Both the position numbers and the translations under genes were made by a program. The notes beneath the pieces are model-generated. The model saw only the letters and a list, made by a program, of their open reading frames with translations. It was not told the origin of the DNA and did no database searches. Shown in pieces: positions 24,458-49,663 of a stretch of 64,000 bases of DNA. The first letter of the stretch is position 1; every line of letters starts with the position of its first letter. The DNA is from an uncultured Candidatus Saccharibacteria bacterium (GTDB taxonomy: Bacteria > Patescibacteriota > Minisyncoccia > UBA6257 > 1-14-0-10-44-23). The DNA lies in assembly GCA_964394435.1 (NCBI GenBank), contig CAYMXN010000001.1:43739-107738 (forward strand), written 5' to 3'.

Positions 24458-25513
24458 ATGGCGAATCCGTCAAAAACTACAAACGTAATCATAGAGGAGT
24501 TGTTCTCTGATCTTGATCCGCGTCAGCGCAAAGTTTTAGTTAAGCGTTATGGACTTGATACAACCGACGAGATGACGTTGGCCGAGCTCGGAAAGCAGTT
24601 CGGTGTTACTCGTGAGCGCATCCGTCAGATCGAAGCACTCGCTTTAAAAGAGGTAAGCAAAAAGGCGAAGGGAGGTCATTTGAATGACATTGTTGGCGCC
24701 TCTGTTGAGCGACTCAAGGAGTCTGCTGGTGTTCGCCATGAGGGGAACTTACTTGAAGAGATAAAGATTTTTGCTCACCCGTCAGATCTCAATAAGAGTT
24801 TTGGCAATCAGGTTCGTTTCTTGCTCGAGCTTTCTGGGGTACTTACGTATCACCGTGAAGATGAGGAGCTTTTTTCGCACTGGCATCTTTCCGCCGAGCA
24901 TCAGAAGCGTGCGCTTGATTTCCTTGATACATTAATTAAACAGCTCAAGGATAAGAAGCAAGAGACTCTTCACAGCAAGAAGTTTGACGACTTCTTCCGT
25001 GAGGTAACGAAGTTGCACAAAGTTGAAGAGAAAGTTGCGCGACACTATCTTACGATTTCTAAGAAGTTTGGTAAGAACAAGTTTGGTGATTTCGGTCTCA
25101 CGGAGTGGGAAGAGGTCAACCCAAAGGTTTCTCGCGACTGGATCTATTTGATTCTCAAGAAGGCGAACCGCCCAATGCACTTTAACGAGATTGCTGAAGA
25201 GATTCGCAGGATGCGTAATGAGAAAAAGACCAATACGCAGACGATTCACAACGAACTCATCAAAGACAAGCGTTTTATCTTAGTTGGCCGTGGTATCTAT
25301 GGCCTACGCGAAAATGATGATTTCCCGGCAGGAACGATTCGCGAGGTACTTGTTCACATCTTAAAGAAGGCTGGGCCGATGAAGCCAAAAGACATCATGG
25401 CTGAAGTGCTTAAGCGTCGTATCTTTAAGGAGAACACGATCTTGTTTAACCTCCAGAATAAGAAGTATTTTGAGCGTACTACTGAAGGTAAGTACAAGCT
25501 GAAAAACGTATAA
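24458..25513 (+). CDS. DNA-binding protein with sigma-70 region-4-like HTH (N-terminal) and HARE-HTH-like winged helix (C-terminal)
   Basis: LDPRQRKVLVKRYGLDTTDEMTLAELGKQFGVTRERIRQIEALALK resembles sigma region 4; C-terminal PMHFNEIAEEI...RFILVGRGIYGLREN resembles the HARE-HTH of the RNA polymerase delta subunit. Confidence 0.5.
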   Translation: MANPSKTTNVIIEELFSDLDPRQRKVLVKRYGLDTTDEMTLAELGKQFGVTRERIRQIEALALKEVSKKAKGGHLNDIVGASVERLKESAGVRHEGNLLEEIKIFAHPSDLNKSFGNQVRFLLELSGVLTYHREDEELFSHWHLSAEHQKRALDFLDTLIKQLKDKKQETLHSKKFDDFFREVTKLHKVEEKVARHYLTISKKFGKNKFGDFGLTEWEEVNPKVSRDWIYLILKKANRPMHFNEIAEEIRRMRNEKKTNTQTIHNELIKDKRFILVGRGIYGLRENDDFPAGTIREVLVHILKKAGPMKPKDIMAEVLKRRIFKENTILFNLQNKKYFERTTEGKYKLKNV

Positions 25514-25521
25514 GAATCAAT

Positions 25522-25546
25522 GCGAGCCCTCCGGGGCTCGTTTTGA
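25522..25546 (+). terminator. rho-independent terminator
   Basis: gcgagccc-tccg-gggctcg plus tttt. Confidence 0.7.
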
Positions 25547-25591
25547 TTCTTGAGGCAATGGGCAAAGGGCGATATACTTAATACAGAACGT

Positions 25592-26884
25592 ATGAGTTTT
25601 TTTGATTTTGCACAACAGCTTTGGGGGTATACCGCCGCTTTTCTTTTAAATATCTGGCCGGTTGTTTTGTTTTTTATTCTCTTTCCTCTTTTTCGATCAG
25701 CATATCTTTTTTGGAGGCAGCAACTTTTTATCGAAGATACAAAGTGGGTTTTTCTTGAAATGATTATTCCTCGATTGCTCGAGAAGAGTCCGCGTGGAAT
25801 GGATCAGGTGCTTCAATCACTCCATCAGCTTCGAAATTCGCCAAGCACTTGGCGCGATAGATATAACGGTGGTGAGGTTACGTATTGGTTTACTCTTGAG
25901 ATGGTGAGCTTTGGCGGTCAGATTCATTTTTATATTCGCTGCGAAGAGCATTTGCGTCCTTTGGTTGAGGCGGCATTTTATTCCGCGTACCCCGATGTTG
26001 AGTTGAATGAAGTGCACGATTATATGCACACATTGCCCCATACGTATGCAGATATTCGTGCGCAGGGGTATGAGATGTGGGGGACGGAGATGACGCTTAA
26101 AAAACCATCGATGTATCCGATTAAGAGCTATCTTGATTTCGAAACTCCTGATGAGCAGTTGCAGTTTGACCCGATTTCGAGTTTCTTGGAGGTGCTTGGT
26201 CAGGTTAAAGAAAAGGAGTTTTTGGGATTGCAGTTTAATATTATTCCGCACGATCATGAGTCGTGGATTAAGCACTTTGAGGCTGATATTGATAAGCTGC
26301 GCGAACCACGCAAGATTGAGTCTGATAAAGAGGGTGGTTTTCCGATGATGATTCCAAAATCGAAGCGACAGAGCGATATTTTGGATGCAGTTGAGCGTAA
26401 TTTTTCCAAACCACCATTTGCGTGCGCGGTTCGGTTTGTGTATATGGGGCCAAAGGCTGATTTTTATGATTCGTTTGCTCGTCGTGGCATTATCAGTGCA
26501 TTTAACCAGTATTCTGCCGGTGATCTTAACGCGTTTGGTCAGAACTTTGGTATGATGACTGGCGCGAGTCCGTATAAGTTTCCGTATTTGTTTACGGGAA
26601 TTCGCAAGAAGCTGCGTAAGCAGCGCTTGTGGGGATATTACCATCACCGTGAAGCTGGTATTGAGACGTTTTTTGGTAAGCTTATTTCCTCGCATCCGCT
26701 CAACTTTAATTTTCACTCAACTGAATTTGAGCTAAACACCGAATCTTTGGCGACATTGTTTCATCCGCCAACAGGCATCGTGCTTACTGCGCCACATACA
26801 AAGCGTGTTGAGAGTAAAAAGTTTGGTGCTCCGGCTGGATTACCGATTTATGCTGATGAAAAGGTATTGGATAAATTCTTATAA
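25592..26884 (+). CDS. membrane-anchored hypothetical protein (about 430 aa); first gene of the ATPase module
   Basis: N-terminal TM AAFLLNIWPVVLFFILFPLF; ATG at 25592 preferred because TTG at 25550 abuts the terminator; no domain recognised. Confidence 0.45.
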   Translation: MSFFDFAQQLWGYTAAFLLNIWPVVLFFILFPLFRSAYLFWRQQLFIEDTKWVFLEMIIPRLLEKSPRGMDQVLQSLHQLRNSPSTWRDRYNGGEVTYWFTLEMVSFGGQIHFYIRCEEHLRPLVEAAFYSAYPDVELNEVHDYMHTLPHTYADIRAQGYEMWGTEMTLKKPSMYPIKSYLDFETPDEQLQFDPISSFLEVLGQVKEKEFLGLQFNIIPHDHESWIKHFEADIDKLREPRKIESDKEGGFPMMIPKSKRQSDILDAVERNFSKPPFACAVRFVYMGPKADFYDSFARRGIISAFNQYSAGDLNAFGQNFGMMTGASPYKFPYLFTGIRKKLRKQRLWGYYHHREAGIETFFGKLISSHPLNFNFHSTEFELNTESLATLFHPPTGIVLTAPHTKRVESKKFGAPAGLPIYADEKVLDKFL

Positions 26885-26889
26885 CTACT

Positions 26890-27540
26890 ATGGCTGACGA
26901 ACACTCATCAGGTCCGGGTTGGTTTGAGCCAGTTGTCATTGGCGTGGTTATTATTGGTATCGCGGCGTATATTTTGTCGCCGGTGTTGCGCTCGGGTTTT
27001 GATACGGCGGATCAACTCGTTAATGCTGATGTGCTTGGCGGAGCCGGTGTTGCTGCTGCTGCGTGGTGGCATCAGTGGGTGGTTCCAACGTTTGTAATTA
27101 TTGATATTATTTTGCTCGCACTTATTGTGTATTGTGGCGTGAAGTCTTGGCATACCTTTCCGAAGGTTAGTATGTTTGAGACGCCGAGTGTTGCGGTGGT
27201 GAAGCGTAAACTAAAAAAAGATAAGACTATTTTGCTTCATTGGAACAACCTTGTTGCCCGATTTAGAACAGGAACTCCGGAGAATATGCGCTTAGCAGTT
27301 ATTGAGGCGGACACTCTTGTTGATTATTTTCTCAAGAAGTCTGAATATCCGGGTGAGACGATGGCGGATCGTTTGAGCAATATTCAGCCAGGTGAGATGA
27401 AGAGCCTTGAGCGTGTCTGGAAGGCGCATCGTTTGCGTAACGATTTAGTGCACACTCCTGGGTTTGCCATTTCACAGAAAGACGCCGAGAGTTCATTACA
27501 GGCGTTTCGCGATTTCTTAATGGAGCTTGATGCGTTTTAA
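26890..27540 (+). CDS. two-TM membrane protein with cytoplasmic alpha-helical domain carrying a HEPN-like RNxxxH motif (HRLRNDLVH)
   Basis: TM helices VVIGVVIIGIAAYIL and VVPTFVIIDIILLALIVYCGV; C-terminal RNDLVH fits the Rx4-6H HEPN signature. Confidence 0.4.
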   Translation: MADEHSSGPGWFEPVVIGVVIIGIAAYILSPVLRSGFDTADQLVNADVLGGAGVAAAAWWHQWVVPTFVIIDIILLALIVYCGVKSWHTFPKVSMFETPSVAVVKRKLKKDKTILLHWNNLVARFRTGTPENMRLAVIEADTLVDYFLKKSEYPGETMADRLSNIQPGEMKSLERVWKAHRLRNDLVHTPGFAISQKDAESSLQAFRDFLMELDAF

Positions 27541-27549
27541 TCTATTATT

Positions 27550-28938
27550 ATGGCTGATCAGCAGCCGGCGTTATCTGCCGGGGTAAAATTACAAACTGTG
27601 AAATATGCGCCGCCACCGGCGCAGCTTCCGGTTTTAGGTAAGGTTGATACTAACGAGACTTCTTTTATCGGGAAGACGAACTATGTTGCCGCACTTGAAG
27701 AAAAGAAGTATGTATTTGGCATTAAGCGAGTCGATCGGCGCCGAAATGTATATATGATTGGTAAGAGTGGTACGGGTAAGACAAAGCTGATGGAGTTAAT
27801 GATCCGTCAGGATATTAGCGCGGGGAAGGGGGTGTGCGTGTTTGATCAGCACGGCGATTTAATCGATGATATTTTGGACTTTATTCCTGAAAGTCGGGCT
27901 GAAGATGTTTTGGTGATTGACCCATCCGATATTGAGTGTCCGGTCGCTTTTAATCCGCTTTCAAATATTGAGCCGGCGTTTCGGCATCAGTTTGCCCAGG
28001 GACTTATTGAGATACTTGAGTCGCAGTTTGGCGCGAGTTGGAACGCTCACATTGAGCATGTATTTCGTTTTATTGTGCTCGCACTTTTAGATTATCCGCA
28101 GGCGACGATGCGAGGTATGATCTCGATGCTTACTGATGCTGCGTATCGCGCACAAGTTATTCCGTACATCACTGATGAGATGGTGCAGCGATTTTGGCGG
28201 GATGAGTTTGTCGCCTGGTCGACTAAGACAGAGAAGGTTGAGGCCGAGGCGGTTGCTCCGCTTGTAAATAAGCTGGCTCAATTTTTTTCTGATCCACTTT
28301 TGCGCTCAATTTTTACTAAGCAGGAAAATGCGATTGACGTGAATGAGTGGTTGCGGGGACAGAAGATCGTGTTAATTAATCTTAACAAGGGGAAGCTCGG
28401 TAAGGAGAACTCGAGTTTTTTTGGTGGACTTTTCCTAATTAAGCTTAAGCAGGCGGGTATGGCACGTTTAAGTCAGCCCGAAGCTTCGCGGAAGGATTTT
28501 AATGTGTATATTGATGAGTTTCATCATCTGATTACCGAAACGTTTGAGAGTTTGTTATTTGAAGGGAAGAAGTATCATATCTCGTTTACTATCGCTCATC
28601 AGTATCTTGGTCAAATTATCGAACATTTTCGGTCATCGATTTTTGGTAACGTGGGTACGATTATTGTATTTCGAGTTGGCGGAGAGGATGCGGAGCGCCT
28701 TGAGAGTGAACTTGCTCCGGTCTTTAAAGTTAAAGATATGATCAACCTTGGTAAGCGTGAGTTTTATATCAAGATGGTGATTGACGGTGAGCCGTGTGAC
28801 CCATTTTCCGCAGAGACGCTTAAGGTTTTGCTTCCTAATACTCCTTCGGCCCGTGAGCAGATTATGAAAACATTTCGGGGCAGGTATTGCCATCCCGCAG
28901 TTAGTGAGCGTACATCCGTGCCTCCGCCAGCTCATTAG
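27550..28938 (+). CDS. FtsK-HerA superfamily P-loop ATPase, TraD/TraG/VirD4 coupling-protein-like (no TM)
   Basis: Walker A YMIGKSGTGKTKLM, Walker B VYIDEFHHL, IAHQYLGQ motif; tandem paralog of 29004..30884. Confidence 0.6.
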   Translation: MADQQPALSAGVKLQTVKYAPPPAQLPVLGKVDTNETSFIGKTNYVAALEEKKYVFGIKRVDRRRNVYMIGKSGTGKTKLMELMIRQDISAGKGVCVFDQHGDLIDDILDFIPESRAEDVLVIDPSDIECPVAFNPLSNIEPAFRHQFAQGLIEILESQFGASWNAHIEHVFRFIVLALLDYPQATMRGMISMLTDAAYRAQVIPYITDEMVQRFWRDEFVAWSTKTEKVEAEAVAPLVNKLAQFFSDPLLRSIFTKQENAIDVNEWLRGQKIVLINLNKGKLGKENSSFFGGLFLIKLKQAGMARLSQPEASRKDFNVYIDEFHHLITETFESLLFEGKKYHISFTIAHQYLGQIIEHFRSSIFGNVGTIIVFRVGGEDAERLESELAPVFKVKDMINLGKREFYIKMVIDGEPCDPFSAETLKVLLPNTPSAREQIMKTFRGRYCHPAVSERTSVPPPAH

Positions 28939-29003
28939 ACTTTTTTAGTCTTTTGAGGCGTGGTTATTTTACGCTATACTAATAGAGGTAACTTATTATA
29001 TCT

Positions 29004-30884
29004 ATGCATCAGCCATCTCAACCTGCGCCGGATAATAGCCAGAATGTTGTGTATTTTGCTCGCACTGATTTTCGAGGTGCGTCGAAACTTTTTGGTATAA
29101 AACGTAAGGATCGTCGGCAGCATATGTACGTAATCGGTAAAACCGGTACGGGCAAGTCTGCTTTTTTGCATAATTTAATTGCGCAGGATATTGCGAATGG
29201 TGATGGGTTGTGTGTGGTTGATCCACACGGTGAGTTGATTGAGGGGGTGCTTTCGATGATTCCAAGAGAACGCATTAAAGATGTGGTGTATTTTAATCCG
29301 GCGGACATCGATTACCATATGGGGTTTAATGTGCTCGAGCTTCCAGATCCTCGGTACAAGCACTTAGTCGCTTCGGGTCTTATGGGTATTTTTACAAAAA
29401 TCTGGAGCAATGTATGGAGTGCGCGTATGGAGTACATTATGAACAACGCGATTTTGGCTTTGCTTGATACTCCAAACACTACACTGCTTGGTATCCCGCG
29501 TTTGCTTGTCGATAAAAACTACCGGCAGCGTATTGTGAATAACGTAAAAGATCCGGTTGTCCGTGCATTTTGGGTTAACGAGTACGAGGAGTGGCAAGAT
29601 AAGTTTCGCTCTGAAGCTATCGCTCCAATTCAGAACAAGGTCGGACAGTTTTTGTCGACTTCGATTATTCGTAATGTCGTCGGACAGACGACGAGTACGA
29701 TTGATATTTTTGATATTATGAATAGTCGAAAAATCTTTTTGGTTAACGTGTCTAAAGGACGTATCGGTGAAGATAACTCGGCACTTTTAGGTGCGATGCT
29801 GATTACTAAGATTCAGCTTTCGGCGATGGAGCGCGTGCGTATTCCTGAAGACGAGCGTAAAGATTTTTATTTATATGTTGACGAGTTTCAGAACTTTGCG
29901 ACGGATTCATTTGCGAGCGTGCTCTCTGAAGCACGTAAGTATCGCTTAGACCTGATTATCGCTCACCAATATGTTGGTCAGCTCGTAACTGATGTTTCAA
30001 CAAAGGTACGTGATGCGGTATTTGGAAACACCGGTACGATGGTGGTGTTTCGGGTTGGTGCGGCTGATGCGGAGTTTTTAGAAAACGAGTTTGCACCTGA
30101 ATTTACTGTTGAGGACATTGTTAATCTTCCAAACTATCATATTTATCTCAAGTTAATGGTTGATGGGTTTACGGCACGACCATTTTCTGCTGCGACCATA
30201 GCGCCGTTTAAGAGTAGGGGTGGTTCGGCGGGGTTGGATGAGATTATTACCGCTTCTCGGCAGCGATATGCGCGTCGACGTGAGGATATTGAGGCGGCGA
30301 TTAACCGATGGGCGAGCGGTACGGGCGTAGAGGCTGAAGATGATGCGCCGCGTCGTTCAAATATTGATACAACAACTGCTTCGCCTGCTCCCGCACCAAC
30401 TCATACCGGGACTGCGAAAACTCAAAGCGCGGCGCCAGCTCGTTCGGGCGAGCGATCTTCTGATGAGATGACTATTGCGGTCTGCTCTTCGTGTGGTAAA
30501 GAGGCGAAGTTGCCGTTTAAGCCAACGCCGGGACGACCAGTGTATTGTTCGGATTGTATGAATAAGATTCAGAAGGGTGAGCTTAAGCCGGTTAAGTCGA
30601 TTAAGAAGCCAACTCAAGAACTTATGGATAAGGGGGTTTCTTCGCTCGCTTCGATTGGTATCGAGTTTGAGGCTCCGAAACAATCTCGGCCGGCGTCTTC
30701 TTCGCAGCCGCGCAACGATCAGCGCCTACATCAGCGAGCACGTGGCGGCGGAGGTACTCAAAAGAAAGAGGTTTCGCTTTCTGAACTCCATCCGCGTAAT
30801 GATAAGCCTAAGCTTAAGGAGGTGCAGAGCTCGGATATCGAGAAGATGAAGCAGCAGCTTTCGCAAGCCTCACATCAGCCATAG
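29004..30884 (+). CDS. TraD/VirD4-like P-loop ATPase paralog with disordered C-terminal extension and CxxC...CxxC zinc ribbon
   Basis: Walker A YVIGKTGTGKSAFL, Walker B LYVDEFQNF, IAHQYVGQ; C-terminal CSSCGKEAKLPFKPTPGRPVYCSDC; RBS gaggta. Confidence 0.6.
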   Translation: MHQPSQPAPDNSQNVVYFARTDFRGASKLFGIKRKDRRQHMYVIGKTGTGKSAFLHNLIAQDIANGDGLCVVDPHGELIEGVLSMIPRERIKDVVYFNPADIDYHMGFNVLELPDPRYKHLVASGLMGIFTKIWSNVWSARMEYIMNNAILALLDTPNTTLLGIPRLLVDKNYRQRIVNNVKDPVVRAFWVNEYEEWQDKFRSEAIAPIQNKVGQFLSTSIIRNVVGQTTSTIDIFDIMNSRKIFLVNVSKGRIGEDNSALLGAMLITKIQLSAMERVRIPEDERKDFYLYVDEFQNFATDSFASVLSEARKYRLDLIIAHQYVGQLVTDVSTKVRDAVFGNTGTMVVFRVGAADAEFLENEFAPEFTVEDIVNLPNYHIYLKLMVDGFTARPFSAATIAPFKSRGGSAGLDEIITASRQRYARRREDIEAAINRWASGTGVEAEDDAPRRSNIDTTTASPAPAPTHTGTAKTQSAAPARSGERSSDEMTIAVCSSCGKEAKLPFKPTPGRPVYCSDCMNKIQKGELKPVKSIKKPTQELMDKGVSSLASIGIEFEAPKQSRPASSSQPRNDQRLHQRARGGGGTQKKEVSLSELHPRNDKPKLKEVQSSDIEKMKQQLSQASHQP

Positions 30885-30923
30885 TTTTTTCCCCGGTATT
30901 TGGTAAACTTAATAGCGTACGTA

Positions 30924-32570: not shown

Positions 32571-32590
32571 CAACTGGTGCATTTTTCGAT

Positions 32591-33220
32591 ATGAAACCGA
32601 ATTTTAAATCACTTACTCAATCAAACATTATTCTTGTTGTCGACCCTCAAAAAACGGTCGCGCCCGAGAATCGTGATTTTGTTGACTTGTTTGGTCCCGC
32701 TGATTCTGCTGGCTCGCAGTTTGTAGATGATCCGGTTATTCGCTCAAAATTTATGGTTGTGCCGAAGCTTCAGCTTCGCGTTACTCTTGAAAATGTGCGC
32801 TTGCGCATCGACGATGATTCGAAGGCGCAGCCAGCTCAATCTATCTTGGTTCGTGAAGCTATGCGTGCCTATACAAAGCTCTTTAAGCAGGTTCAGCTTA
32901 CTGCGATCGGCTTTAATTTTGATATTATGTATCGATTTGAAAAAATGATTCCGACGGATTATCTTTTTAAACATTTCGCTGACGAGAAGCTTCTTAAAAA
33001 AGGTACGTTTTTTGATTTTGGTATTCAATTCGCCCTCGATCGTGAAGGGGGAAGGGCTCAAGAGGTTGTGTTTTTGAAGATGCCATCGGCTCTCGAGCTT
33101 GCCGTGCATTACAACTACCATCTTAATGCGCGCGAGCTACCAAAGAGCGAAAAACTTCAGCAGATTTTTGAAAAGGCATATGAACAAGTCGATGAGATTA
33201 TCGAGCATTTAAAGTTCTAA
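32591..33220 (+). CDS. hypothetical cytoplasmic protein (about 209 aa)
   Basis: Internal ATG of ORF 32528..33220; no motif recognised. Confidence 0.4.
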   Translation: MKPNFKSLTQSNIILVVDPQKTVAPENRDFVDLFGPADSAGSQFVDDPVIRSKFMVVPKLQLRVTLENVRLRIDDDSKAQPAQSILVREAMRAYTKLFKQVQLTAIGFNFDIMYRFEKMIPTDYLFKHFADEKLLKKGTFFDFGIQFALDREGGRAQEVVFLKMPSALELAVHYNYHLNARELPKSEKLQQIFEKAYEQVDEIIEHLKF

Positions 33221-33223
33221 TAT

Positions 33224-34684: not shown

Positions 34685-34687
34685 CGT

Positions 34688-35416: not shown

Positions 35417-35421
35417 CTTGT

Positions 35422-36387: not shown

Positions 36388-36439
36388 GCGTAACGGTCGA
36401 TCCTAAAGTTTAATTTTAATACCATTATGGATAATTCAT

Positions 36440-36916: not shown

Positions 36917-36942
36917 AATTTGTTTTAGTTGTTTTGGTTGGA

Positions 36943-37950: not shown

Positions 37951-37997
37951 TGGGTCGTTGGTTTGAGAAATAATTTTGATATGCTACTATCATCGCT

Positions 37998-38507: not shown

Positions 38508-38509
38508 TT

Positions 38510-39040: not shown

Positions 39041-39085
39041 ACTTTTTGTTATCGCGCTATTCGGTTTTCTTGGTATACTTATTCT

Positions 39086-39496: not shown

Positions 39497-39498
39497 CT

Positions 39499-42400: not shown

Positions 42401-44073
42401 ACTGGTCGTTTTACGATCTTGAATTTAACGGATCTAACGCGGGAGGAGCGTCATTTCAAAACAGCAGCGCTGCGAGCACCACCATTACTGTTTCAAACGT
42501 CTTAACGATTGGTTCTTCGACTGATTCTGGTGCGACTACGTTTGCCGCGGGCAGTTCGACTTTTGTACTTTCTGGTACGACCGGTACGCCGTTTGTAATT
42601 ACATCTAGTCCAGCTGCGACGTTTACGAGCGCTTCTTCGACATTCCAATTTTCCGGAAACTATGCGAGTGGTAATACGCAGATTCCGGGCGTTGGTTATT
42701 ACAAGTTGGTTACTAATAACGCTTCAGAGACGTATAACATTACCGGAAATGCGAGCACCTCGGACAGCTTAACTGTTACTGCCGGCACATTTGATATCGC
42801 AACGTCGAGTTTTGTTATTGGAGACGGACTAACAGTTTCTTCTGGGGCTACATTTACTGGTTCGAATAATGTCACGCTAACTGTAGCAACGAGCACTGCT
42901 TCATTTTTAGGGACGACTAACTTTACCGGTGGCACATTTTCGTTGTTCGCCCGAAATAGCGACAAGACGATTGATCTTGGGAGTGCGAGCGCAAGCACAA
43001 CCCTTAATATTATGACGATAGACTCGGTTGGTATTAGTCCGACCGTTACGTTTAGCGGTACCGGTGGTGGTTTGCGTACGCTTGGCGGACTATCGATTGG
43101 CTCAATTGGTATTGTTACGCTGGCGGTTACTACTTCGGCGCCGTTTACGATTGAAGGTAATTTTAATAATACGGTAAATGGTACGTTTAACGCTTCTTCG
43201 AGTGTAGCGCTTACCTTTAAGGGGAACTTTCTTTCGGATGGAACACTGACTACCGCGAGTAGTACGTTTATCTTTACCGGTTCGTCGGGGACGGCGACAA
43301 TTGGCGGTGCTGCTGCGTTTACATTTTATAATTTGAGCTTACTCGCTCCTACGGCAACTCGAACGTATCAGTTTACGAGCGGTAAGACGTATTATGTGAA
43401 TGGTGCGCTGAATATCGCCGGAACGAGTAGCTCGGTTAAGGCGGTTATTAGTGCGTCAACTGGTAGTGTGCAGTGGCTTATTAATCACCAGGGAACTGAA
43501 AACGTACAGTTTGCCAACATTATTGACTCTGGCTGTGATGCGTTGAGTACTAATATCAGTGTGATGTCGGCTGATAACCTTGATAATGGAAATAACGGTA
43601 CGTGTTGGCTATTTCAGACGTTAGCAATGACCCTAAGCACCACGACCATTTCATTGCCACTCACTAGTGGTAATACGTGGACAACTACCGCGAGTAACAC
43701 GCTCACCGTCACTTCTACGGTCGAGTCTGGATATAACGTAACTGCTTTTGCTTCGGGCTTATTAACCTCTGGGTTAAATACTATCAGTGATTGGCCGAGC
43801 AGTTATTCGGCACCAACAACATGGGCGGGTACGTGTAGTGGTTCGAGCCAGTGTGGATTTGGCTATAACACCGATGATGCTGATTTAACACAATTTTCAG
43901 GAAGTAAGTACGCGGCGTTTAGTAGTAGTACTCCCGGAGATATTATTGCTACTAAATCAACTAGTGCGCGTGGTGATCAAACAACTATTACGTATCGTGT
44001 TTCGGTTCCAACAAATCAAGCCGCGGGTACGTATACTAATAGTTTGAATTTTGTTTTAACACAGCAATTTTAA
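39499..44073 (+). CDS. giant (1524 aa) secreted Thr/Ser/Gly/Ala/Asn-rich surface protein with conserved about 130-aa C-terminal domain ending ...YRVSVPTNQAAGTYTNSLNFVLTQQF
   Basis: Signal peptide MSNTKTFLFYILFAFGLLVSFPSSAAAA; composition; C-terminal domain homologous to that of 45357..46610. Confidence 0.6.
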   Translation: MSNTKTFLFYILFAFGLLVSFPSSAAAAISLVQSNSTYPGGTGPTGLAFSSNNTAGNLIVVGVQGANNSADPTITDTRGNTYVKVGSVHGGSGTAYSYLYYAKNIAAGANTVTVTLPNGNDLGFHISEWSGVDTTSPFNASSSDVATSSVTVWSTTNLTTTAADTVLIAFTGTENSAETFTAGTNFTKLTEQTSHSSMVQYRIVSSAGTYRATATVSNADNAWVMIMGAFKAANTITPTKVVFNPFSARSKTFFLDPPAFNSISGYTSSTSFKELAAGGQPADGFSSSTSYKPCAGQLCTFFLTNDPNPASIAYLTGYRWYSNADAVTTGSTLAATNATTTAPAQGTPLRLRAVLHMPVDYSIGPTSSTLPVSGINNTVTGATAWTNTNNVTSSDNSYATVVLPNATLPSNYIEAKNFGFSLPASSTITGIYVEVDRKDDGSKLKDAFVSIFKTDGSPNLGTASTSFWTSTEQTATYGGQYDLWSTSFTAADINSPDFGFGIGVWGDSVACAGGCTASVDAIRVTVYYQPENLKLQYAAKSGTCDTAFSGETYVDVATSSGAIRFYNNTTPSDNDTITASSSDPTHGTDTVVAQTYQESNNFGVTSTVPAGNDGLWDFSLVDYSATANTDYCFRVVSSSGATSTPDYVPEFTTAAAGAGITISGTVYSDAGITTTTSSVSLSINGGTKTTVSTNGSGVFTFSSVTTPNAADVITVWMDNNGGGNGTGATVTRYSGSGDLTGLDIYRSRMIVRHEDAGPIINTDIDACTKTLGAGCADSDIHFDVSGGALTVDSDWGLYVWGGDTFTPGGAVTLTAGAASSTPGGDLTWGSSSSTLSMSTNALSVGGDWRNDVGGTATITSSAVTFTATQPGMVINSGNKNFGSVTFNGVGGTWSASTSQMVITGSTGLTMTAGTLNNVMGSAPITVSGNGNVVGSGTGDGVISLTSSKFIFRPGILVSRNFASGNTVNWSFYDLEFNGSNAGGASFQNSSAASTTITVSNVLTIGSSTDSGATTFAAGSSTFVLSGTTGTPFVITSSPAATFTSASSTFQFSGNYASGNTQIPGVGYYKLVTNNASETYNITGNASTSDSLTVTAGTFDIATSSFVIGDGLTVSSGATFTGSNNVTLTVATSTASFLGTTNFTGGTFSLFARNSDKTIDLGSASASTTLNIMTIDSVGISPTVTFSGTGGGLRTLGGLSIGSIGIVTLAVTTSAPFTIEGNFNNTVNGTFNASSSVALTFKGNFLSDGTLTTASSTFIFTGSSGTATIGGAAAFTFYNLSLLAPTATRTYQFTSGKTYYVNGALNIAGTSSSVKAVISASTGSVQWLINHQGTENVQFANIIDSGCDALSTNISVMSADNLDNGNNGTCWLFQTLAMTLSTTTISLPLTSGNTWTTTASNTLTVTSTVESGYNVTAFASGLLTSGLNTISDWPSSYSAPTTWAGTCSGSSQCGFGYNTDDADLTQFSGSKYAAFSSSTPGDIIATKSTSARGDQTTITYRVSVPTNQAAGTYTNSLNFVLTQQF

Positions 44074-44077
44074 CTTT

Positions 44078-45193
44078 ATGCTTAAGAATTCTCGAAAAAC
44101 TATTTACTTAATGCTTGCCTTGGTTGCTTTTATTTTTCGCTTGCCAACACCAGCTCTAGCTGAAGGATTGCAATTGTCAGTAAGTAAAGGTATTTTTGCT
44201 CTTGAGGTTTTGCCGGGGATCGCCCACGAGGATATGATTGGCGTGATCAATACTTCGGCTAGTCAGCCGTTGCCAGTTGAGGTGCAGATGTCGATGTGGA
44301 ATTTGAAATCTAATGCAGATGAGCTCGAATTTGTTTCGGTTGATGATGAGCTGAATGCGACGAAGTGGTTTTCGCTCGTTTCTCCAAAAGGGGGAGTTAG
44401 TAGACTTTCGGGTACGCGCTTTATTATTCCCGCTGATGGGTATCGTGATTTACGTTTTAGGATTCTACCCCCACAGTCTGCTCCGCTTGGAAGTTATCTT
44501 GTGGCGATGCGCTTAAAAGTTGCTGCTCCTGATTATTATTTTGCCGAAGGTGGAACGCGTCTGTATCCGGAAATTGACGTACTCTTTTTTATCAATGTAA
44601 AAGATCTTAATCTTTCTGGTTCGAGTCAGCGATACACGGCGCAGATTTCTTCATTTAGCGCAAAAGACGACAATACGATTGGAGCGCTTTCGCTGCTTGT
44701 TTCAAAGGCGAGCGCTGGAGTATTTGAGGATATTGTAAACCAATATATCGCAACTATTCGTAATACCGGTTTGTATTATTTTAAGATGAAGGGCAGTATC
44801 GAGGTGAAAAATATGTTTGGGAGAGTTGTAAAGACTATCGATTTGCCGAATAGGTACTTAATTCCAAATCGAACTCGTTCGCTTGAGATTGGTATCGAGG
44901 AGGACGCCAATGCTTCTCGGGGGATATTTTCTTCATTTGGGCGATTTTTTGCTGATCATTTTTATTTCGGTCCATATACCGCAACGTTGCTTTTGCAGGT
45001 TCCGGTTAACTCGATTGACGATACTCCCGATGCTAACTCGTTTGTTCGTGAGTCGGTGCGTTTTTGGGTGTTTCCTTGGAAATTGCTCTTGTTGGTTGTT
45101 GGGTTTGTTTTCGCAATCCGCTTCTTCTGGAAACGGGGAGGAGTGTTACGCATCAAGCGAGCGTTTTTGACGCTTATCGGAAAGGCAAAGTAG
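44078..45193 (+). CDS. CscA-like (DUF916/DUF3324-like architecture) secreted protein with C-terminal TM anchor and basic tail; partner of the giant protein
   Basis: Signal peptide; two beta-rich domains; FWVFPWKLLLLVVGFVFAIRFFWKRGG; paralog of 46616..47551. Confidence 0.45.
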   Translation: MLKNSRKTIYLMLALVAFIFRLPTPALAEGLQLSVSKGIFALEVLPGIAHEDMIGVINTSASQPLPVEVQMSMWNLKSNADELEFVSVDDELNATKWFSLVSPKGGVSRLSGTRFIIPADGYRDLRFRILPPQSAPLGSYLVAMRLKVAAPDYYFAEGGTRLYPEIDVLFFINVKDLNLSGSSQRYTAQISSFSAKDDNTIGALSLLVSKASAGVFEDIVNQYIATIRNTGLYYFKMKGSIEVKNMFGRVVKTIDLPNRYLIPNRTRSLEIGIEEDANASRGIFSSFGRFFADHFYFGPYTATLLLQVPVNSIDDTPDANSFVRESVRFWVFPWKLLLLVVGFVFAIRFFWKRGGVLRIKRAFLTLIGKAK

Positions 45194-45356
45194 CAAGCTA
45201 TATTTGACCATTTCAAATATTTATTGACTTATCCACAGTTTTGATTTGTTTTGTAAAGTAGGGATGTGAGCTTTCGTGTTATACTAAGTGTAAATAAATC
45301 GTGTGGATTTATTTTGTAGCTTTTATTACTAATTATTAATTAATTCTTTGACTATC

Positions 45357-46610
45357 ATGAAACGATTTTTAAGCCATTTGATGGGGGCGACCGGAAGTGC
45401 GACTGTCGCCACGACGCTCATCATCTCACTGCTTGTTTCGGCGAGCGGTTTTTACTTATTATCTCGCTCGGCGAGTGCGACTGCGCTTACTTCGGTCAAA
45501 GATACGCTTTCGACCTCCGCTCCAGCTACAGCGGCTAACCACACGATTCAGTTTATTACCAAGAGTAACATCGCTAACGGCGATACGATTAAGATTGAGT
45601 TTGATACACTCGGTACAACTGACCAATTTACGATTAACTCACTTCTCTTTAGTGATATCGACTTAAAGCATAACAACCAGGGTAGCTGTTCGGGCACTCT
45701 TGCTAACCAGACTATTTCTTCTGCTTTTACTACAGCATCAAGTACTTTTACGGTTGCTATTTCGAGTTCAACTGATGATATTACCTTTACGGCGACTTCG
45801 ACGGCAGCTACGTATATCCCGTCAGGTGCGTGCGTTATTATCACCATCGGAACAAACTCAACGTATCAATCAACTGGAGTAAACCAGATTGTAAATCCAG
45901 CTAAGACTGCGGCTGCTGGTGTTGCTGATGTCAACGACGTAAAGATTACGTTTACCGGTACTCCAGCTGCTGATAGTGGCTCGGCTCTAGTGGCGACTAT
46001 CGACCAAGTTACGGTCTCGGTTACCGTTGACTCGAGTCTCTCGTTCTCTATTTCTGGTGTGACTGGTGCGAGCTGTACACAAGGTACTGGTACCCAGGTG
46101 ACTACAACTTCGACTACTGTACCGTTTGGTTCTTCGTTGGTTGCTGTAAACACTTTCTATAGAGGTTGTCAGGACTTAGTGGTGAGCACAAACGCTTCGA
46201 GTGGATACGCGATCACTGCAGAAGAGAATACGAGCTTGCTTTCCGGTTCGATCACGTTAGACGACACTCGTTGCGATTTCGCCTCGGCGGAGTGTAGCGA
46301 GGTTATTGGTGCTGCATCTACTACAGCTTGGGCGACCGCAACTAACAATGGTTTTGGCTATACTTGCAGCGGCTCTTCTTGTAACTCTGCTTTTGCTACA
46401 GCAACCGAGTACAATCAGTTCTCGTGCACCGGATCTGATGCGCAATGCAATCCGGGTTCGGGAGGTGAGGCCGCACAGACACCAATTTCCACTTCGACTC
46501 CAGTAAGTGCTGATACCTCACGTATCGTCTATCGTCTCTCGGTAAGTGGTACGCAGCCAGCTGGTTCGTACAGCAACACCATTACCTATATCGCGACGCC
46601 GACCTTCTAA
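45357..46610 (+). CDS. Thr/Ser-rich surface protein (about 417 aa) sharing the C-terminal domain of the giant protein (...YRLSVSGTQPAGSYSNTITYIATPTF)
   Basis: Signal anchor; SGYAITA, TAWAT, GFGY, SGSSC, QFSC motifs align with the 39499 C-terminus; ATG 45357 (TTG 45348 alternative). Confidence 0.55.
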   Translation: MKRFLSHLMGATGSATVATTLIISLLVSASGFYLLSRSASATALTSVKDTLSTSAPATAANHTIQFITKSNIANGDTIKIEFDTLGTTDQFTINSLLFSDIDLKHNNQGSCSGTLANQTISSAFTTASSTFTVAISSSTDDITFTATSTAATYIPSGACVIITIGTNSTYQSTGVNQIVNPAKTAAAGVADVNDVKITFTGTPAADSGSALVATIDQVTVSVTVDSSLSFSISGVTGASCTQGTGTQVTTTSTTVPFGSSLVAVNTFYRGCQDLVVSTNASSGYAITAEENTSLLSGSITLDDTRCDFASAECSEVIGAASTTAWATATNNGFGYTCSGSSCNSAFATATEYNQFSCTGSDAQCNPGSGGEAAQTPISTSTPVSADTSRIVYRLSVSGTQPAGSYSNTITYIATPTF

Positions 46611-46615
46611 CAGTT

Positions 46616-47551
46616 ATGAACAAGCGCCTATCATTTAAAGCTTTCGCGATAGTATCGCTTCTCCTTTTGGGTGCCTTTATGTACGCACCAAAGGCCTCTG
46701 CTATTACGATTTCGCCACTTAACTTTGAGCTTAGTGGCAATCCGGGTGATAAGATTTCGAATGTGCTGCGTATCTACAACGATCAGGATGTTCCTATTGG
46801 TGTAAGCGTAAGCGCTCAAAACTTTACCGCTTCTGATGAAGAGGGGCGCGTCAAAATTGACCTTGATAATACCCGGGAAAATTCGTACTCATTTGCGAGC
46901 TGGATTAAGCTGTCACCTGAAGAGTTAGTAATTGAGCCAAAGTCTTTTAAGGCGATCGAGTTTACGGTTTCAGTTCCACTTAATGCAGAGCCAGGAGGAC
47001 ACTACGCCTCTATTTTAGCTGCTGTTGGGGCTACTTCAGAGACTGGTGCGACTGCGATTTCACAGCGTATTGGAGCGCTTCTTCTTTTGAATGTGAGTGG
47101 TGAGATTAAAGAGGAGATGTATCTAAAAGAGTTTTCGGTTCCGAATTATTCTGAATATGGTCCAGTTACGCTCGTAAGTCGTTTTGAAAATACCGGCAGC
47201 GTTCACTTAAAGCCTCGTGGGTTTATTACGATAACAAACATTTTCAATCAGGAGGTTGGTCGCTTCGACTTACCACAGAGCAACGTTCTCCCGGGAACGA
47301 TTCGTCGTATCGAAACTGCTTGGGGTCAGAAGTATTTGTTTGGACGGTATCAGGCGAATTTAACGACGGTGTATGGATCGACGAATGATCCAATCACGAG
47401 CGTGGTTCAGTTTTGGGTCATCCCATGGAAAGAGACTGCAGCCGTCGGATTTGCCGGCTTGATTGTACTCATCTTCTTGATTCGCCGCCGCCGCCGTATC
47501 GGCCTTGCGCTACGCGTCTTGTTTGGCTCTGAAATGCCGAAGCAGCGTTAG
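46616..47551 (+). CDS. CscA-like membrane-anchored partner protein, paralog of 44078..45193
   Basis: Signal peptide; FASWIKLSP, FWVIPWK, C-terminal TM plus RRRRR tail; collinear similarity with 44078..45193. Confidence 0.45.
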   Translation: MNKRLSFKAFAIVSLLLLGAFMYAPKASAITISPLNFELSGNPGDKISNVLRIYNDQDVPIGVSVSAQNFTASDEEGRVKIDLDNTRENSYSFASWIKLSPEELVIEPKSFKAIEFTVSVPLNAEPGGHYASILAAVGATSETGATAISQRIGALLLLNVSGEIKEEMYLKEFSVPNYSEYGPVTLVSRFENTGSVHLKPRGFITITNIFNQEVGRFDLPQSNVLPGTIRRIETAWGQKYLFGRYQANLTTVYGSTNDPITSVVQFWVIPWKETAAVGFAGLIVLIFLIRRRRRIGLALRVLFGSEMPKQR

Positions 47552-47570
47552 CGACTTATTATTTCTTTTC

Positions 47571-48509
47571 ATGCAGCATTTTCAAAGGATTGGTCGCGCG
47601 TCCGTATATTTTGCTCTGCTTATTCTTTGTATTCCGTTTTTTGGGTCTGCCGCAGAGACTCGGGATATTGGCGTTACGATTACCATTGGCGAAACCGCTA
47701 CGACAACACCTTCTGGGGGTGGTGGCGGGGGTGGAGGAGGTACGTTTGGTACGGTAACCGCTGTTACATTAAGCGGATACGTGTATCCGGGTGCGATTAT
47801 TACCTATTTGGATAATGGTGTTGTTATTGGGACTGGTGTTGCTGATAGTAGTGGGGTATTTTTGAAATCGTTTTCTGTTCCTTCAGGACTTTCGCAATTT
47901 GGTCTTTGGGCGCGCGATACGATGGATTTTATTTCACCAACTACGAATATCGGTATATATCTACAACCGTATGTTCCGGTTACTATTTCGCAGATTGTAA
48001 TCGGCCCGACTATTACTGGGAAGACTAATCTTGCGGTTGGCGAGGATCAGCTTTTGTATGGAAGTGGTTACCCTGGGGCTCAAATTAATTTGTTTAATAT
48101 TTTTGCCCCAAGTCAGACTCCGTATACAGCGATGGTGAATGCGGCCGGTCGTTGGCAGATTCGTATTCCTGCTGCTTCGTTGTTTGCTGGATCGTATACG
48201 TTTCAGGCGATGATGCAGGCTGGACTAGGAGGGAGTACGGGGTATTCGCAGGGATTTACTTTTATTGTCGGGAAGAGCGGAGAGTTGGTTCCTGGGCAGC
48301 CGCCGGTTAGCGGTGGAGGCAAGAGGTGTTTTGGTTCGGATTTTAATGGTGATGGGCGGGTTAATATTCAAGACTTCTCAATCTTTCTTTTTTACTGGCA
48401 CAAGGATTATTCACAGCGACCTCCGGCCAATGCCTGCGTAGATCGCAATGGTGATCGCAAGGTTGATATTAAGGATTTTTCGATCGTTATGCATGACTGG
48501 ACTAAGTAA
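47571..48509 (+). CDS. secreted Gly-rich protein with C-terminal type-I dockerin domain
   Basis: Signal peptide; poly-Gly; tandem Ca-binding repeats DFNGDGRVNIQDFSIF / DRNGDRKVDIKDFSIV. Confidence 0.7.
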   Translation: MQHFQRIGRASVYFALLILCIPFFGSAAETRDIGVTITIGETATTTPSGGGGGGGGGTFGTVTAVTLSGYVYPGAIITYLDNGVVIGTGVADSSGVFLKSFSVPSGLSQFGLWARDTMDFISPTTNIGIYLQPYVPVTISQIVIGPTITGKTNLAVGEDQLLYGSGYPGAQINLFNIFAPSQTPYTAMVNAAGRWQIRIPAASLFAGSYTFQAMMQAGLGGSTGYSQGFTFIVGKSGELVPGQPPVSGGGKRCFGSDFNGDGRVNIQDFSIFLFYWHKDYSQRPPANACVDRNGDRKVDIKDFSIVMHDWTK

Positions 48510-48523
48510 TATATACTCATAGT

Positions 48524-49663
48524 ATGAAGCGCAATATTCTATTTATCTCGTTGTTCTTTGTTGGTTTGTTTGGATTTTGCGCAAACAGCGTGTATGCGGC
48601 TTCTCTGTTTCTTTATCCGCAACATATCGACTTAGTTGAGGGTGAGAGTGCGAGCGTTGAGATTCGGCTTTCAACCGACGGAAAACAGATGAATGCTGCG
48701 GAAATCCATGGTGTTCTTACTGGGCTGGCGGCGAGTATTCGTAGTATTGATGATTCGCAGACTATTATTAAGCTCTTTCTTGATCGGCCTTCGACGGCGC
48801 GCAATGAGTTTGAACTCATTGGTGGCGTTCCGAATGGATTTGCGGGTGATGGTATTTTGGGAAGACTTACCGTTCGCGGTTTAGCTAAAGGAACTGCTTC
48901 GATTAGTTTTTTGCCTTCTTCGCAGGTACTTGAGAATGACGGGAATGGGACTGCGCTTCCGTTGTCTTTATCGGGTGCGACTATCGCTGTTTCTGCGCGT
49001 CCACAGGATTATATTGTCATCACGTCGCAGTCTCATCCGGATCAAGATATGTGGTATCAGCGTCGCTCAGTTCAGCTTCATTGGGATCTTAAGCCTGGGG
49101 CGAGCTATAGCTATTTAGTGAGTAGAGATATTACTGCGGTTCCTGATAATATGGCTGATAAGCCAGAGGGTGAGTTGCTTTGGTTAGGTGATATCAAATT
49201 GAGTGATATTCAGGATGGTATTACGTATTTTTCAGTTAAGGAGGTCGGGGGGAGTGTGGTGTCGAGGTATCGCTTGATGCAAGATAGTTCACTGCCGGAG
49301 TTTTCTGACGCGACTATTCGCCCAGGAATTATTGAGACGGGTGGGAAGGAGTTTCTGACTTTTTCTGCTACTGATGCAGTCTCGGGTATCGACCGATTTG
49401 AAGTGAAGGTTGATGGTCGTGATTTTGAAAGCGTGACATCGCCATATATTTTAGGTTCTGGGTACCGCACACTTATCTTGCGGGCGTACGATCGAGCGGG
49501 TAATTATGCTGAAAAAACGTTTACTGCTGCTCGCTTTGTGGTTATCTCTTGGTTCTCGGTTGTCATTCTCTTGCTCATCTTGCTTATCTTGGCGCTGCTG
49601 TATATTTTATTCCACTGGCTTAGCGATCGTCGTGAGGAGCGGAAAAAGCATATAAAAGTGTAG
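48524..49663 (+). CDS. membrane-anchored cohesin-domain protein
   Basis: Signal peptide; N-terminal about 140-aa module (LYPQHIDLVEGESASVEIRLS...ILGRLTVRGLAKGTASISF...GATIAVS) with cohesin-like pattern; C-terminal TM VVISWFSVVILLLILLILALLYILF and basic tail. Confidence 0.55.
   Translation: MKRNILFISLFFVGLFGFCANSVYAASLFLYPQHIDLVEGESASVEIRLSTDGKQMNAAEIHGVLTGLAASIRSIDDSQTIIKLFLDRPSTARNEFELIGGVPNGFAGDGILGRLTVRGLAKGTASISFLPSSQVLENDGNGTALPLSLSGATIAVSARPQDYIVITSQSHPDQDMWYQRRSVQLHWDLKPGASYSYLVSRDITAVPDNMADKPEGELLWLGDIKLSDIQDGITYFSVKEVGGSVVSRYRLMQDSSLPEFSDATIRPGIIETGGKEFLTFSATDAVSGIDRFEVKVDGRDFESVTSPYILGSGYRTLILRAYDRAGNYAEKTFTAARFVVISWFSVVILLLILLILALLYILFHWLSDRREERKKHIKV

Follow-up and report, generated by a model that had tools for sequence, protein, structure and literature searches.

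The region analysed here lies at positions 24458-49663 of a 64-kb stretch of DNA (hereafter the window; 64,000 nucleotides of contig CAYMXN010000001.1, assigned to an uncultured Candidatus Saccharibacteria bacterium). It consists of 21 consecutive open reading frames (ORFs), all on the + strand, preceded by SecD and SecF and followed by efp (minus strand), mnmA and then ComEC. This layout agrees with a first-pass annotation made from the DNA letters, which regarded the whole span as one accessory island with two TraD/VirD4-like ATPases coupled to large surface proteins and a cohesin-dockerin pair, matching no known pilus locus. Our results point to a different organisation. We hold with reasonable confidence that the region is a row of independent units which happen to lie side by side in this lineage, and not one machine. 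Unit A (24458-30884) is a DUF8128/ATPase module, unit B (30900-39496) contains envelope and modification genes, and unit C, the surface cluster, is in our judgement probably a divergent member or variant of the Pam/WxL-type chaperone-assisted pili, with a cohesin-dockerin pair that is new for such a system.

Bacteria of the candidate phyla radiation (CPR) are thought to be attached to hosts, and their contact appendages are mostly unknown. The Pam pilus of Ca. Mycosynbacter amalyticus has been described as a fibre of two-domain pilins assembled by donor-strand exchange without an envelope-spanning machine (bioRxiv 10.64898/2026.03.03.709456). Its parts are the pilins PamA, PamB, PamE and PamT, the FimC/PapD-like chaperones PamC and PamD, each with a C-terminal transmembrane (TM) helix, and the anchor PamR, and proteins of the Pam architecture have been seen by cryo-electron microscopy (cryo-EM) as donor-strand filaments in a CPR bacterium (bioRxiv 10.64898/2026.03.03.709456). 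WxL clusters follow another gene grammar, in which a TM-anchored WxLIP of the DUF916-DUF3324 type is accompanied by two proteins, one small and one large, with a common C-terminal domain (PMC10599100). The genes of unit C are as follows.

39499-44073, + strand: p1524, a giant secreted protein rich in Ser, Thr, Gly, Ala and Asn (S/T/G/A/N), with a signal-like N-terminus and a pilin C-terminal domain at its end
44078-45193, + strand: chapA371, a membrane-anchored DUF916/WxLIP-type chaperone-like protein with a signal-like N-terminus and a C-terminal TM segment (residues 326-344), paired with p1524
45348-46610, + strand: pil420, a two-domain pilin with 10 Cys, composed of an N-terminal β-sandwich, the linker strand VTVSVTVDSSLSF and a C-terminal immunoglobulin (Ig)-like domain
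46616-47551, + strand: chapB311, a membrane-anchored DUF916/WxLIP, PapD/FimC-like chaperone (WxLIP_PGBD, E = 1.9e-5)
47505-48509, + strand: dock334, an exported adaptor in which a signal, the strand IGVTITI and a poly-Gly linker precede one or more Big_6 Ig domains, with a dockerin at the C-terminus
48524-49663, + strand: coh379, a divergent cohesin (residues ~27-150) with two further β domains, a signal peptide and a C-terminal TM segment (residues 332-369)

The pilin was compared with the NCBIfam model NF058581 (CPR_Pam_pilin_C), which pil420 matched with an E-value of 5.2e-7 and 29.9 bits at a cut-off of 55. The same model matched 39 of 50 members of the pilin family, also below the cut-off, and the best E-value was 3e-10. 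In the AlphaFold2 (AF2) model of pil420 (pLDDT 87), two β domains at residues 48-217 and 231-418 are joined by the conserved strand. The family is large, with 170 word-indexed matches and 4107 clusters at 50% identity in an exhaustive profile search, and some of its members are proteins of 600-3000 amino acids (aa) which carry the pilin unit at the C-terminus. The last ~145 aa of p1524 are homologous to the C-terminal (acceptor) domain of the pilin (hhalign 96.8%, E = 2.6e-10), and a motif scan of p1524 found no VTVSVTV-type linker strand. Homologues of this giant protein, 974-4553 aa in length, are first in the cluster in L084, L085, L086 and L167. We propose p1524 as a candidate tip adhesin and pil420 as a candidate shaft subunit.

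The pilin-like C-termini encoded in many CPR clusters share the pattern Q-x-A-x-x-Y-[ST]-x-x-[ILV]-x-[FYVI]-x-A-x-x-x-[PF], examples being AGSYSNTITYIATPTF and ATSYTGGVTITAIANP. It was located at 46560-46610 and 44020-44073 of the window, and at L090 13168-15300, L095 15943-17642 and L146 5209-6255 in relatives. These subunit C-termini (…AGSYSNTITYIATPTF) presumably resemble the distal WxL motif with its Trp replaced.

The two chaperones connect unit C to both known systems. chapB311 scored 25.1 bits against WxLIP_PGBD, for which the cut-off is 27.3, and 42 of the 47 members of its family matched this domain. Its AF2 model (pLDDT 89) consists of a signal helix, two β-sandwiches and a C-terminal TM helix at residues 271-302. 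When this model was searched with Foldseek, the best matches were 9i1y (the WxLIP of E. faecium) and 9i25 (WxLIP with the long WxL protein), both at about 1e-12, followed by the chaperones CfaA, FimC, CsuC, Caf1M and PapD of chaperone-usher systems at 1e-10 to 1e-8. chapB311 corresponds to the TM-anchored WxLIP of WxL clusters, while an HBD/DUF3324 domain was not detected in it by sequence. chapA371 aligned to the chapB family with an hhalign score of 99.4% (E = 2.3e-21), and the order of pilin followed by chaperone occurs twice in unit C (p1524-chapA371 and pil420-chapB311). Searches of the PDB sequences with the pilin, the chaperone and the cohesin protein, and with profiles of the pilin and chaperone, gave nothing meaningful.

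The dockerin of dock334 matched Dockerin_1 with an E-value of 7.2e-6 and a score of 26.5 bits, which exceeds the Pfam cut-off (22.9), and Big_6 was matched as well. Translation of this gene probably starts at the ATG at ~47571. All seven homologues examined (7/7) have the signal, the strand, the poly-Gly linker, Big_6 and a dockerin with two D-x-N-x-D Ca loops. The strand occurs in the variants IGVTITI, VGVSITI and LTISITI, and the sole other strict match to its pattern in these clusters was the inter-domain linker of the pilin, VTVSVTVD(E/S)SL. In the pilus clusters compared, the dockerin gene always follows chaperone B.

No direct Pfam match was obtained for coh379. However, 6 of 11 aligned homologues matched PF00963 (Cohesin), the best at 5.3e-10, in the region aligned to residues ~27-150. 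coh379 aligns over its full length with the proteins that carry PF00963, and every cohesin protein has a TM helix at its C-terminus. Its naming as a cohesin follows from this family homology and not from a match of its own. Judged by sequence, a dockerin with duplicated Ca loops and a putative cohesin recognised through its family are encoded together. The dockerin/cohesin pair that had been named in the first-pass annotation is thereby upheld for the dockerin and for the conservation of the pair, whereas its cohesin is identified through its relatives. The literature holds nothing that links cohesin-dockerin to CPR pili, and the Pam preprint makes no mention of WxL, DUF916, cohesin or dockerin (bioRxiv 10.64898/2026.03.03.709456).

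Unit C resembles the Pam system in many respects. It is CPR-restricted, its subunits appear to be exported by Sec, and its pilins, which contain several Cys, are predicted to have two domains with a linker strand. Two PapD/FimC-like chaperones, predicted to keep the C-terminal TM helix, are encoded beside the pilins. The cluster lacks both an usher and an ATPase, has a gene for a fibre-like protein nearby, and is adjoined in one relative (L169) by an ATP synthase operon. Differences were also found. The pilin scores of the window's cluster in hidden Markov model (HMM) searches did not reach the cut-off of the family, a giant of 1524 aa stands first where Pam has the single-domain PamT, and no PamR-like anchor (two fibronectin type III domains, an N-terminal strand and a C-terminal TM helix) was recognised, a dockerin adaptor and a TM-anchored cohesin being present instead. 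The two roles of PamR appear to be split between dock334 (strand, Ig, dockerin) and coh379 (cohesin, TM). The earlier statement that the region matches no known pilus locus is out of date, as the Pam pilus now provides a counterpart and WxL/WxLIP another one at the level of the chaperone.

The relative L169 belongs to the Veblenbacteria, and its F-type ATP synthase operon (15613-20957) comes directly after the pilus cluster. An ATP synthase is not near the cluster in the window. ATP synthase genes have been reported beside the pam operons of Saccharimonadia (bioRxiv 10.64898/2026.03.03.709456).

Classical chaperone-usher pili (Pap, Fim, Caf, Csu, CFA/I) share with unit C the chaperone fold, Ig-like subunits and presumed donor-strand assembly. 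In contrast to them, no outer membrane is present here, the chaperones are membrane-anchored and the subunits have two domains with an internal donor strand; no usher-like protein was found among the 21 genes by Pfam and NCBIfam scans. With cellulosome-type anchoring, unit C has in common a type-I-like dockerin with two Ca loops and a cohesin on a cell-anchored protein. Unlike in cellulosomes, enzymes, carbohydrate-binding modules and a multi-cohesin scaffoldin are all missing, a TM helix serves as the anchor in place of an S-layer homology domain or a sortase signal, and the genes sit inside a pilus operon. The cluster suggests a possible non-cellulosomal use of the cohesin-dockerin pair, as a pilus anchor.

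The gene content, the homologies, the predicted folds and the conservation patterns described above are what the data show; the following assembly we infer by homology to Pam and to the structures of chaperone-usher and WxLIP proteins. All subunits would be exported by Sec, and the two membrane-anchored DUF916/PapD-like chaperones would each cap the cognate subunit at its C-terminal Ig domain, which is incomplete. p1524, having an acceptor domain and no donor strand, would start the fibre as the tip adhesin. pil420 would polymerise by donating its inter-domain linker strand (VTVSVTV...) into the preceding subunit, with no need for ATP or an usher. The fibre would be closed off by dock334, whose N-terminal strand would enter the last pilin and whose dockerin would plug into the cohesin of the TM-anchored coh379, an arrangement replacing the PamR of Saccharimonadia. 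Going by these domains, the dock334-coh379 pair probably ties the fibre to the cell membrane, which here would be the cytoplasmic membrane.

If unit C is a pilus of this kind, the Pam type extends in a divergent form to a Paceibacteria/Parcubacteria-type genome and to relatives labelled as Uhr-, Veblen- and Colwellbacteria, and the chaperone ties a Pam-type cluster to the surface clusters of the WxL/WxLIP type in enterococci and lactobacilli, which are poorly understood. A wider proposal may be put forward more tentatively, and we would sooner bet against it than for it as a whole. Parcubacteria-type bacteria might carry Pam-like pili with a cohesin-dockerin base, Pam and the WxL/WxLIP systems of Firmicutes might form one ancient family of usher-less monoderm fibres, and the enzymes p242 and MT2 of unit B might modify the pilins.

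The best-surviving alternative for unit C is a WxL-type surface complex, in which non-polymerising, wall-associated adhesins are held and presented by WxLIP, as has been proposed for the WxL/Csc systems of Enterococcus and Lactobacillus. The best structural match of chapB311 is indeed the WxLIP of E. faecium, including its complex with the long WxL protein, WxLIP_PGBD is matched by most of the chaperone family, and the cluster grammar, with a DUF916-type two-Ig protein bearing a C-terminal TM helix, equals the definition of a WxL cluster (PMC10599100). However, the subunits have neither the Pfam WxL domain nor Trp-x-Leu motifs, and the C-termini of pil420 and p1524 have Tyr or Phe at the Trp position. 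WxL proteins are described as peptidoglycan-bound rather than as filaments, an LPXTG partner is missing here, and the cohesin-dockerin pair is an extra component. The pilin family matches the NCBIfam model for Pam pilins, proteins of the same architecture form donor-strand filaments by cryo-EM in a CPR bacterium, and the conserved linker strand together with the strand-bearing dockerin adaptor fits a polymer. We regard a non-polymerising complex as rather unlikely, though of the alternatives it deserves the most weight. The pilus and the WxL complex may not be mutually exclusive, if WxL clusters are themselves Pam-like.

The separation of the pilus cluster from the ATPases depends on unit A, whose genes are as follows.

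24458-25513, + strand: sigma-70 region 4 and HARE-HTH protein of 351 aa (Pfam Sigma70_r4, 4.7e-15; HARE-HTH, 1.8e-9)
25592-26884, + strand: DUF8128 (PF26449) protein of 430 aa with one N-terminal TM segment and a large conserved domain, assigned by identity to an annotated PF26449 protein
26890-27540, + strand: small membrane protein of 216 aa with two TM segments, directly after DUF8128 in 69-80 of 80 loci
27550-28938, + strand: ATP1, a VirD4/TraD-like (FtsK/HerA-superfamily) P-loop ATPase of 462 aa without TM segments (TrwB_AAD_bind, 3.6e-12; DUF87, TraG-D_C and T4SS-DNA_transf)
29004-30884, + strand: ATP2, a VirD4/TraD-like ATPase of 626 aa (TrwB_AAD_bind, 9.2e-13; zf_Tbcl_2, 6.2e-16; TIGR04272)

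Relatives were collected from 314 species-level genomes with an alignment of DUF8128 homologues, and 80 loci were taken with flanks of 10 kb. The order secD-secF-sigma/HARE-DUF8128-TM protein-ATP1 is colinear in about 60-77 of these 80 loci; the sigma/HARE gene adjoins secF and DUF8128 in 65-68 and ATP1 was found in 74-77. ATP2 is in reach in 22 loci besides that of the sister species L004. In 13 of the ATP2 loci efp is in range as well, always starting at most ~700 bp from the ATP2 match, and after ATP2 in relatives efp mostly continues into mnmA and comEC. The genes at 30900-49663 were seen among the 80 loci in L004 alone (82-87% nucleotide identity to the window). The family HMMs for pilin, chaperone and dockerin had no matches in the 80 DUF8128 loci, and the HMM of the cohesin-TM protein matched one (L006). 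Unit A is a vertically inherited, Paceibacteria-wide core module that continues the secDF operon region, and 30900-49663, when set against the ATP2-efp junction that is common in relatives, is an 18.8-kb lineage-specific insertion.

The ATPase block and the pilus block are adjacent only in the window, in L004 and in one further lineage (L087/L088, the same as L084). In L087/L088 the order is kept in full, from ATP1...ATP2 through a p556-like gene (p556 being the first gene of unit B) and the pilus cluster to efp, with identities of 61% for ATP1 and 52% for the pilin. In Uhrbacteria, Veblenbacteria and other CPR, the pilus unit begins with the giant protein (974-4553 aa) and continues with chaperone, pilin, chaperone, Big_6-dockerin protein and one to three cohesin proteins. 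The pilus clusters found elsewhere adjoin L21/RecR/DnaB, PolA, an ABC transporter or the ATP synthase operon, and a gene resembling a type IV coupling protein (T4CP) is absent there. Altogether the cluster occurs without such ATPases in at least five other genomic contexts.

These comparisons bear on the first-pass proposal that the whole 25 kb is one secretion/display system, in which the giant surface proteins and the cohesin-dockerin proteins are exported or assembled with energy from the two ATPases. The 21 genes are tightly packed on the same strand, their order is retained in L004 and the distant L087/L088, and the function of orphan T4CP-like ATPases in Patescibacteria is open (PMC12102498). 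However, pilus components are absent from the 10-kb surroundings of the other 79 DUF8128/ATPase loci, 13 relatives have efp next to ATP2, and the pilus cluster is found repeatedly without these ATPases. All the surface proteins have Sec-type N-termini, Pam and chaperone-usher assembly needs no cytoplasmic ATPase (bioRxiv 10.64898/2026.03.03.709456), and no VirB4, relaxase or other gene of a type IV secretion system (T4SS) was seen among the large ORFs of the window. A single machine is, in our estimation, very unlikely. The first-pass annotation had itself named independent scattering of the genes in relatives as evidence against coupling of the ATPases to the surface proteins, and the neighbourhood comparison found the blocks to be independent there. 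The ATPase module is a unit distinct from the surface cluster, and the two adjoin each other in particular lineages only. The unifying interpretation is not supported, and a link of orphan VirD4-like ATPases to surface display, attractive as it is, is a false lead by these data. The idea of a surface appendage for host attachment holds for the right two thirds of the region, which are CPR-specific and for which host attachment is probable, but not for the whole block.

Some observations weigh against our interpretation of unit C as a Pam-like pilus standing apart from unit A. The link to Pam is drawn from HMM scores below threshold (about 30 compared with a cut-off of 55) and from architecture, and the Pfam WxL domain was not detected in the pilins pil420 and p1524 at E ≤ 0.01. 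In the neighbourhood comparison, co-occurrence is visible only inside the 10-kb flanks. Because the adjacency is kept in the window, in L004 and in the distant L087/L088, a lineage-restricted functional link between the ATPases and the pilus is possible.

The annotation of unit A as a sigma-region-4/HARE-HTH regulator, two membrane proteins and two paralogous TraD/VirD4-like ATPases was confirmed. The sigma/HARE gene is directly followed by a terminator-like hairpin at 25522-25541. The mechanical ORF of DUF8128 (444 aa) starts at TTG 25550, 14 codons before ATG 25592. Since the ATG is used by all database copies and an exact match is obtained with the 430-aa form alone, the start was placed at 25592; this form is 100% identical to P0001, which is annotated as PF26449 (DUF8128). 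Across Parcubacteria/Paceibacteria-type metagenome-assembled genomes (MAGs), the protein is 42-55% identical. DUF8128 is without mention in the literature, its profile found nothing meaningful among PDB sequences, and the 216-aa membrane protein has no family match in Pfam or NCBIfam.

ATP1 and ATP2 are mutual paralogues (E = 2e-103). The Walker A (GKSGTGKT) and Walker B (VYIDEF) motifs of ATP1 were read from the sequence, Walker A and B are present in ATP2 also, and ATP2 ends in a CxxC-x17-CxxC zinc finger. The P-loop nucleotide-binding domain, the TrwB_AAD_bind and TraG-D_C signatures and the Walker motifs are shared with VirD4, TraD and TrwB. In contrast to these coupling proteins, ATP1 and ATP2 have no N-terminal TM domain (TM prediction found no TM segment in either), and they are paired paralogues behind DUF8128 and a small TM protein. 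The NCBIfam TraD/VirD4 equivalogs scored the two ATPases at 30-47 bits, compared with cut-offs of 250-650. No VirB4, VirB6/VirB8-type component or relaxase was found in the region or in the large ORFs of the window, the smaller flanking ORFs not being scanned. Across 2,918 Patescibacteria genomes, a survey has counted 5,713 VirD4-like proteins and found just 148 of them near virB4 (PMC12102498), and ATP1 and ATP2 fit the 'orphan' T4CPs of that survey. Unit A is a putative membrane-tethered FtsK/HerA-type translocase. We think it fairly probable that it is neither part of a T4SS nor a motor for the downstream proteins. A defence function was also considered and rejected, as PADLOC returned only generic HerA/mad8 P-loop matches, the match of sigma region 4 to MzaA and a generic mad2 match for the methyltransferase MT1 of unit B.

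Between ATP1 and ATP2, 51 of the 80 relatives contain tandem arrays of one to six paralogous Cys-rich cytoplasmic proteins of ~550-610 aa (133 ORFs). These proteins belong to no Pfam family and have no copies in this window; they carry CxxC zinc-ribbon-like motifs at both the N- and the C-terminus. Examples are L026 (13327-20815), L078, L056 and L065, besides 47 other DUF8128 loci. The relatives with the Paceibacteria-type synteny include named Jorgensen-, Lipton-, Kaiser-, Harrison- and Brennerbacteria. Many MAGs with this synteny are labelled Candidatus Saccharibacteria and one (L055) Gammaproteobacteria, labels which look generic or wrong. Three of the findings presented here stand out as new leads, namely the proposed cohesin-dockerin anchor, the connection of Pam to WxLIP, and the DUF8128/ATPase/Cys-rich module as a separate, deeply conserved entity.

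Unit B and the right border of the insertion contain the following features.

30900-32570, + strand: p556, an N-terminally anchored exported protein with a spacer rich in Pro, Gln, Val and Glu and a TM segment at residues 49-67; first gene of the insert
32528-33220, + strand: p230, a cytoplasmic protein without TM segment, co-conserved with p556 and p486
33224-34684, + strand: p486, a membrane-anchored fibre-like protein with 50% S/T/G/A/N and a TM segment at residues 18-36
34688-35416, + strand: p242, a putative GT-A-type glycosyltransferase (Glycos_transf_2 below threshold, E = 0.031)
35410-36387, + strand: membrane-anchored class-A β-lactamase-like (penicillin-recognising) protein (Beta-lactamase2, 6.2e-41; TM segment at residues 6-24)
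36440-36916, + strand: p158, a small exported protein with an N-terminal hydrophobic segment
37060-37950, + strand: MT1, a class I S-adenosylmethionine-dependent methyltransferase (Methyltransf_25, 6.5e-13)
37998-38507, + strand: MT2, a short methyltransferase-like protein (Methyltransf_11, 9.3e-8), the constant partner of p242
38510-39040, + strand: p176, an anchored protein with a p556-type C-terminal domain, after MT2 in L087, L090, L095 and L099
39086-39496, + strand: p136, a small membrane protein with an N-terminal hydrophobic stretch (residues 3-41) scored as a pair of adjoining TM windows, encoded immediately before p1524
49662-49699, no strand: perfect inverted repeat of 18 nt lying exactly where the converging genes coh379 and efp end, between their stop codons, resembling a bidirectional terminator and marking the right border of the insert

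The β-lactamase-like hydrolase and the two methyltransferases of the first-pass annotation were recovered, although the former scored 82 bits against NCBIfam bla_class_A at a cut-off of 200. The glycosyltransferase stands on weaker ground, given the sub-threshold family 2 match of p242. p242 is unusually well conserved, being 62-83% identical in 80 metagenome loci, MT2 adjoins it in 69 of these, and a DUF916 chaperone gene is near it in 10 of 24 long metagenome loci. p242 and MT2, together with MT1 and the β-lactamase-like protein, are probable candidates for envelope- or pilin-modifying enzymes. A modification of unidentified kind has been reported on Ser356 of PamA (bioRxiv 10.64898/2026.03.03.709456). 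No family match was found for p230 in Pfam or NCBIfam, nor for p136, and p242 and p486 gave nothing meaningful against PDB sequences.

The first-pass annotation had also described at least seven large low-complexity surface proteins in paralogous modules. At least eight of the 21 ORFs encode exported or anchored proteins, judged by N-terminal hydrophobic or TM segments, and the paralogy is real: chapA371 pairs with chapB311, the p1524 C-terminus with the C-terminal domain of the pilin, and the C-terminal ~100-aa domain of p556 with p176 (phmmer, 7.5e-13). However, only p486, p1524, pil420 and dock334 are rich in S/T/G/A/N (0.40-0.57), the remaining exported proteins being at 0.32-0.36.

Unit B is conserved in company with pilus genes. 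p556 is colinear with p230-p486-p242 in L087, L090 and L095, homologues of p230 are at the equivalent position in these and in L099, and homologues of p486 (40-44% identical) are upstream of p242 in all four. L090 and L095 have the order p556-p230-p486-p242-(MT1)-bla-MT2-p176, after which come small genes resembling pilins and a chaperone gene, and the supercluster of L090 additionally holds a dockerin and a cohesin. L099 keeps p230 through p176, with neither p556 nor pilus genes detected. No DUF8128 or ATPase gene is present within 10 kb upstream in L090, L095 or L099, and a 138-aa gene takes the position of p136 in L084/L087. Units B and C travel together as an envelope/pilus supercluster in several CPR lineages.

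In relatives, small genes for four-helix bundles (Pfam 23S_rRNA_IVP/bAvd, an accessory family of diversity-generating retroelements) are repeatedly inserted among the pilus cluster genes or called as fusions with them. They were located at L084 3131-3445, L085 7904-9340 and 13502-15040, and L169 7080-7454, and none was seen in the cluster of the window.

The term accessory island does not suit the whole span, because its left 6.4 kb is conserved core synteny and the usual signs of an island were missing. GC content (0.41-0.49) and skew are level across the window with no shift at the region. No tRNA borders the region in a tRNA scan (the sole tRNAs of the window are at 6342 and 20693), a repeat search found no direct repeats at its borders, and Pfam and NCBIfam scans gave no integrase or recombinase family among the 21 ORFs and no phage structural protein in the insert. 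Consequently, that the 18.8-kb insert is a horizontally acquired mobile island or prophage remnant unrelated to pili is highly improbable, in spite of its place in an otherwise conserved ATP2-efp junction, the stronger divergence of its proteins from the sister species (72-86% amino acid identity between the window and L004, compared to 92-99% for core proteins), an internal indel with a duplication scar, and the weak likeness of p486 to a Bdellovibrio fibre protein (NCBIfam Bdello_MAT_N, 1.6e-4, below the cut-off), since, in addition to those missing signs, a search of 2.9 million viral contigs found no relatives of p486 or the chaperone, the PADLOC matches were all of a generic P-loop or methyltransferase kind, and a pilus with envelope genes explains the gene content.

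A scan for promoters and terminators across the region gave no more sites than expected from shuffled sequence, and the hairpin after the sigma/HARE gene was the only one noted. Within the insert, L004 is without p158 and MT1: 36388-37996 has no counterpart there, and the β-lactamase-like gene leads directly to MT2. Just upstream of MT1, at 37004-37048, is a 45-nt copy of the start of MT2 (37997-38041) with 80% identity. Together, this copy and the absence of p158 and MT1 from L004 look like the scar of a recent cassette insertion.

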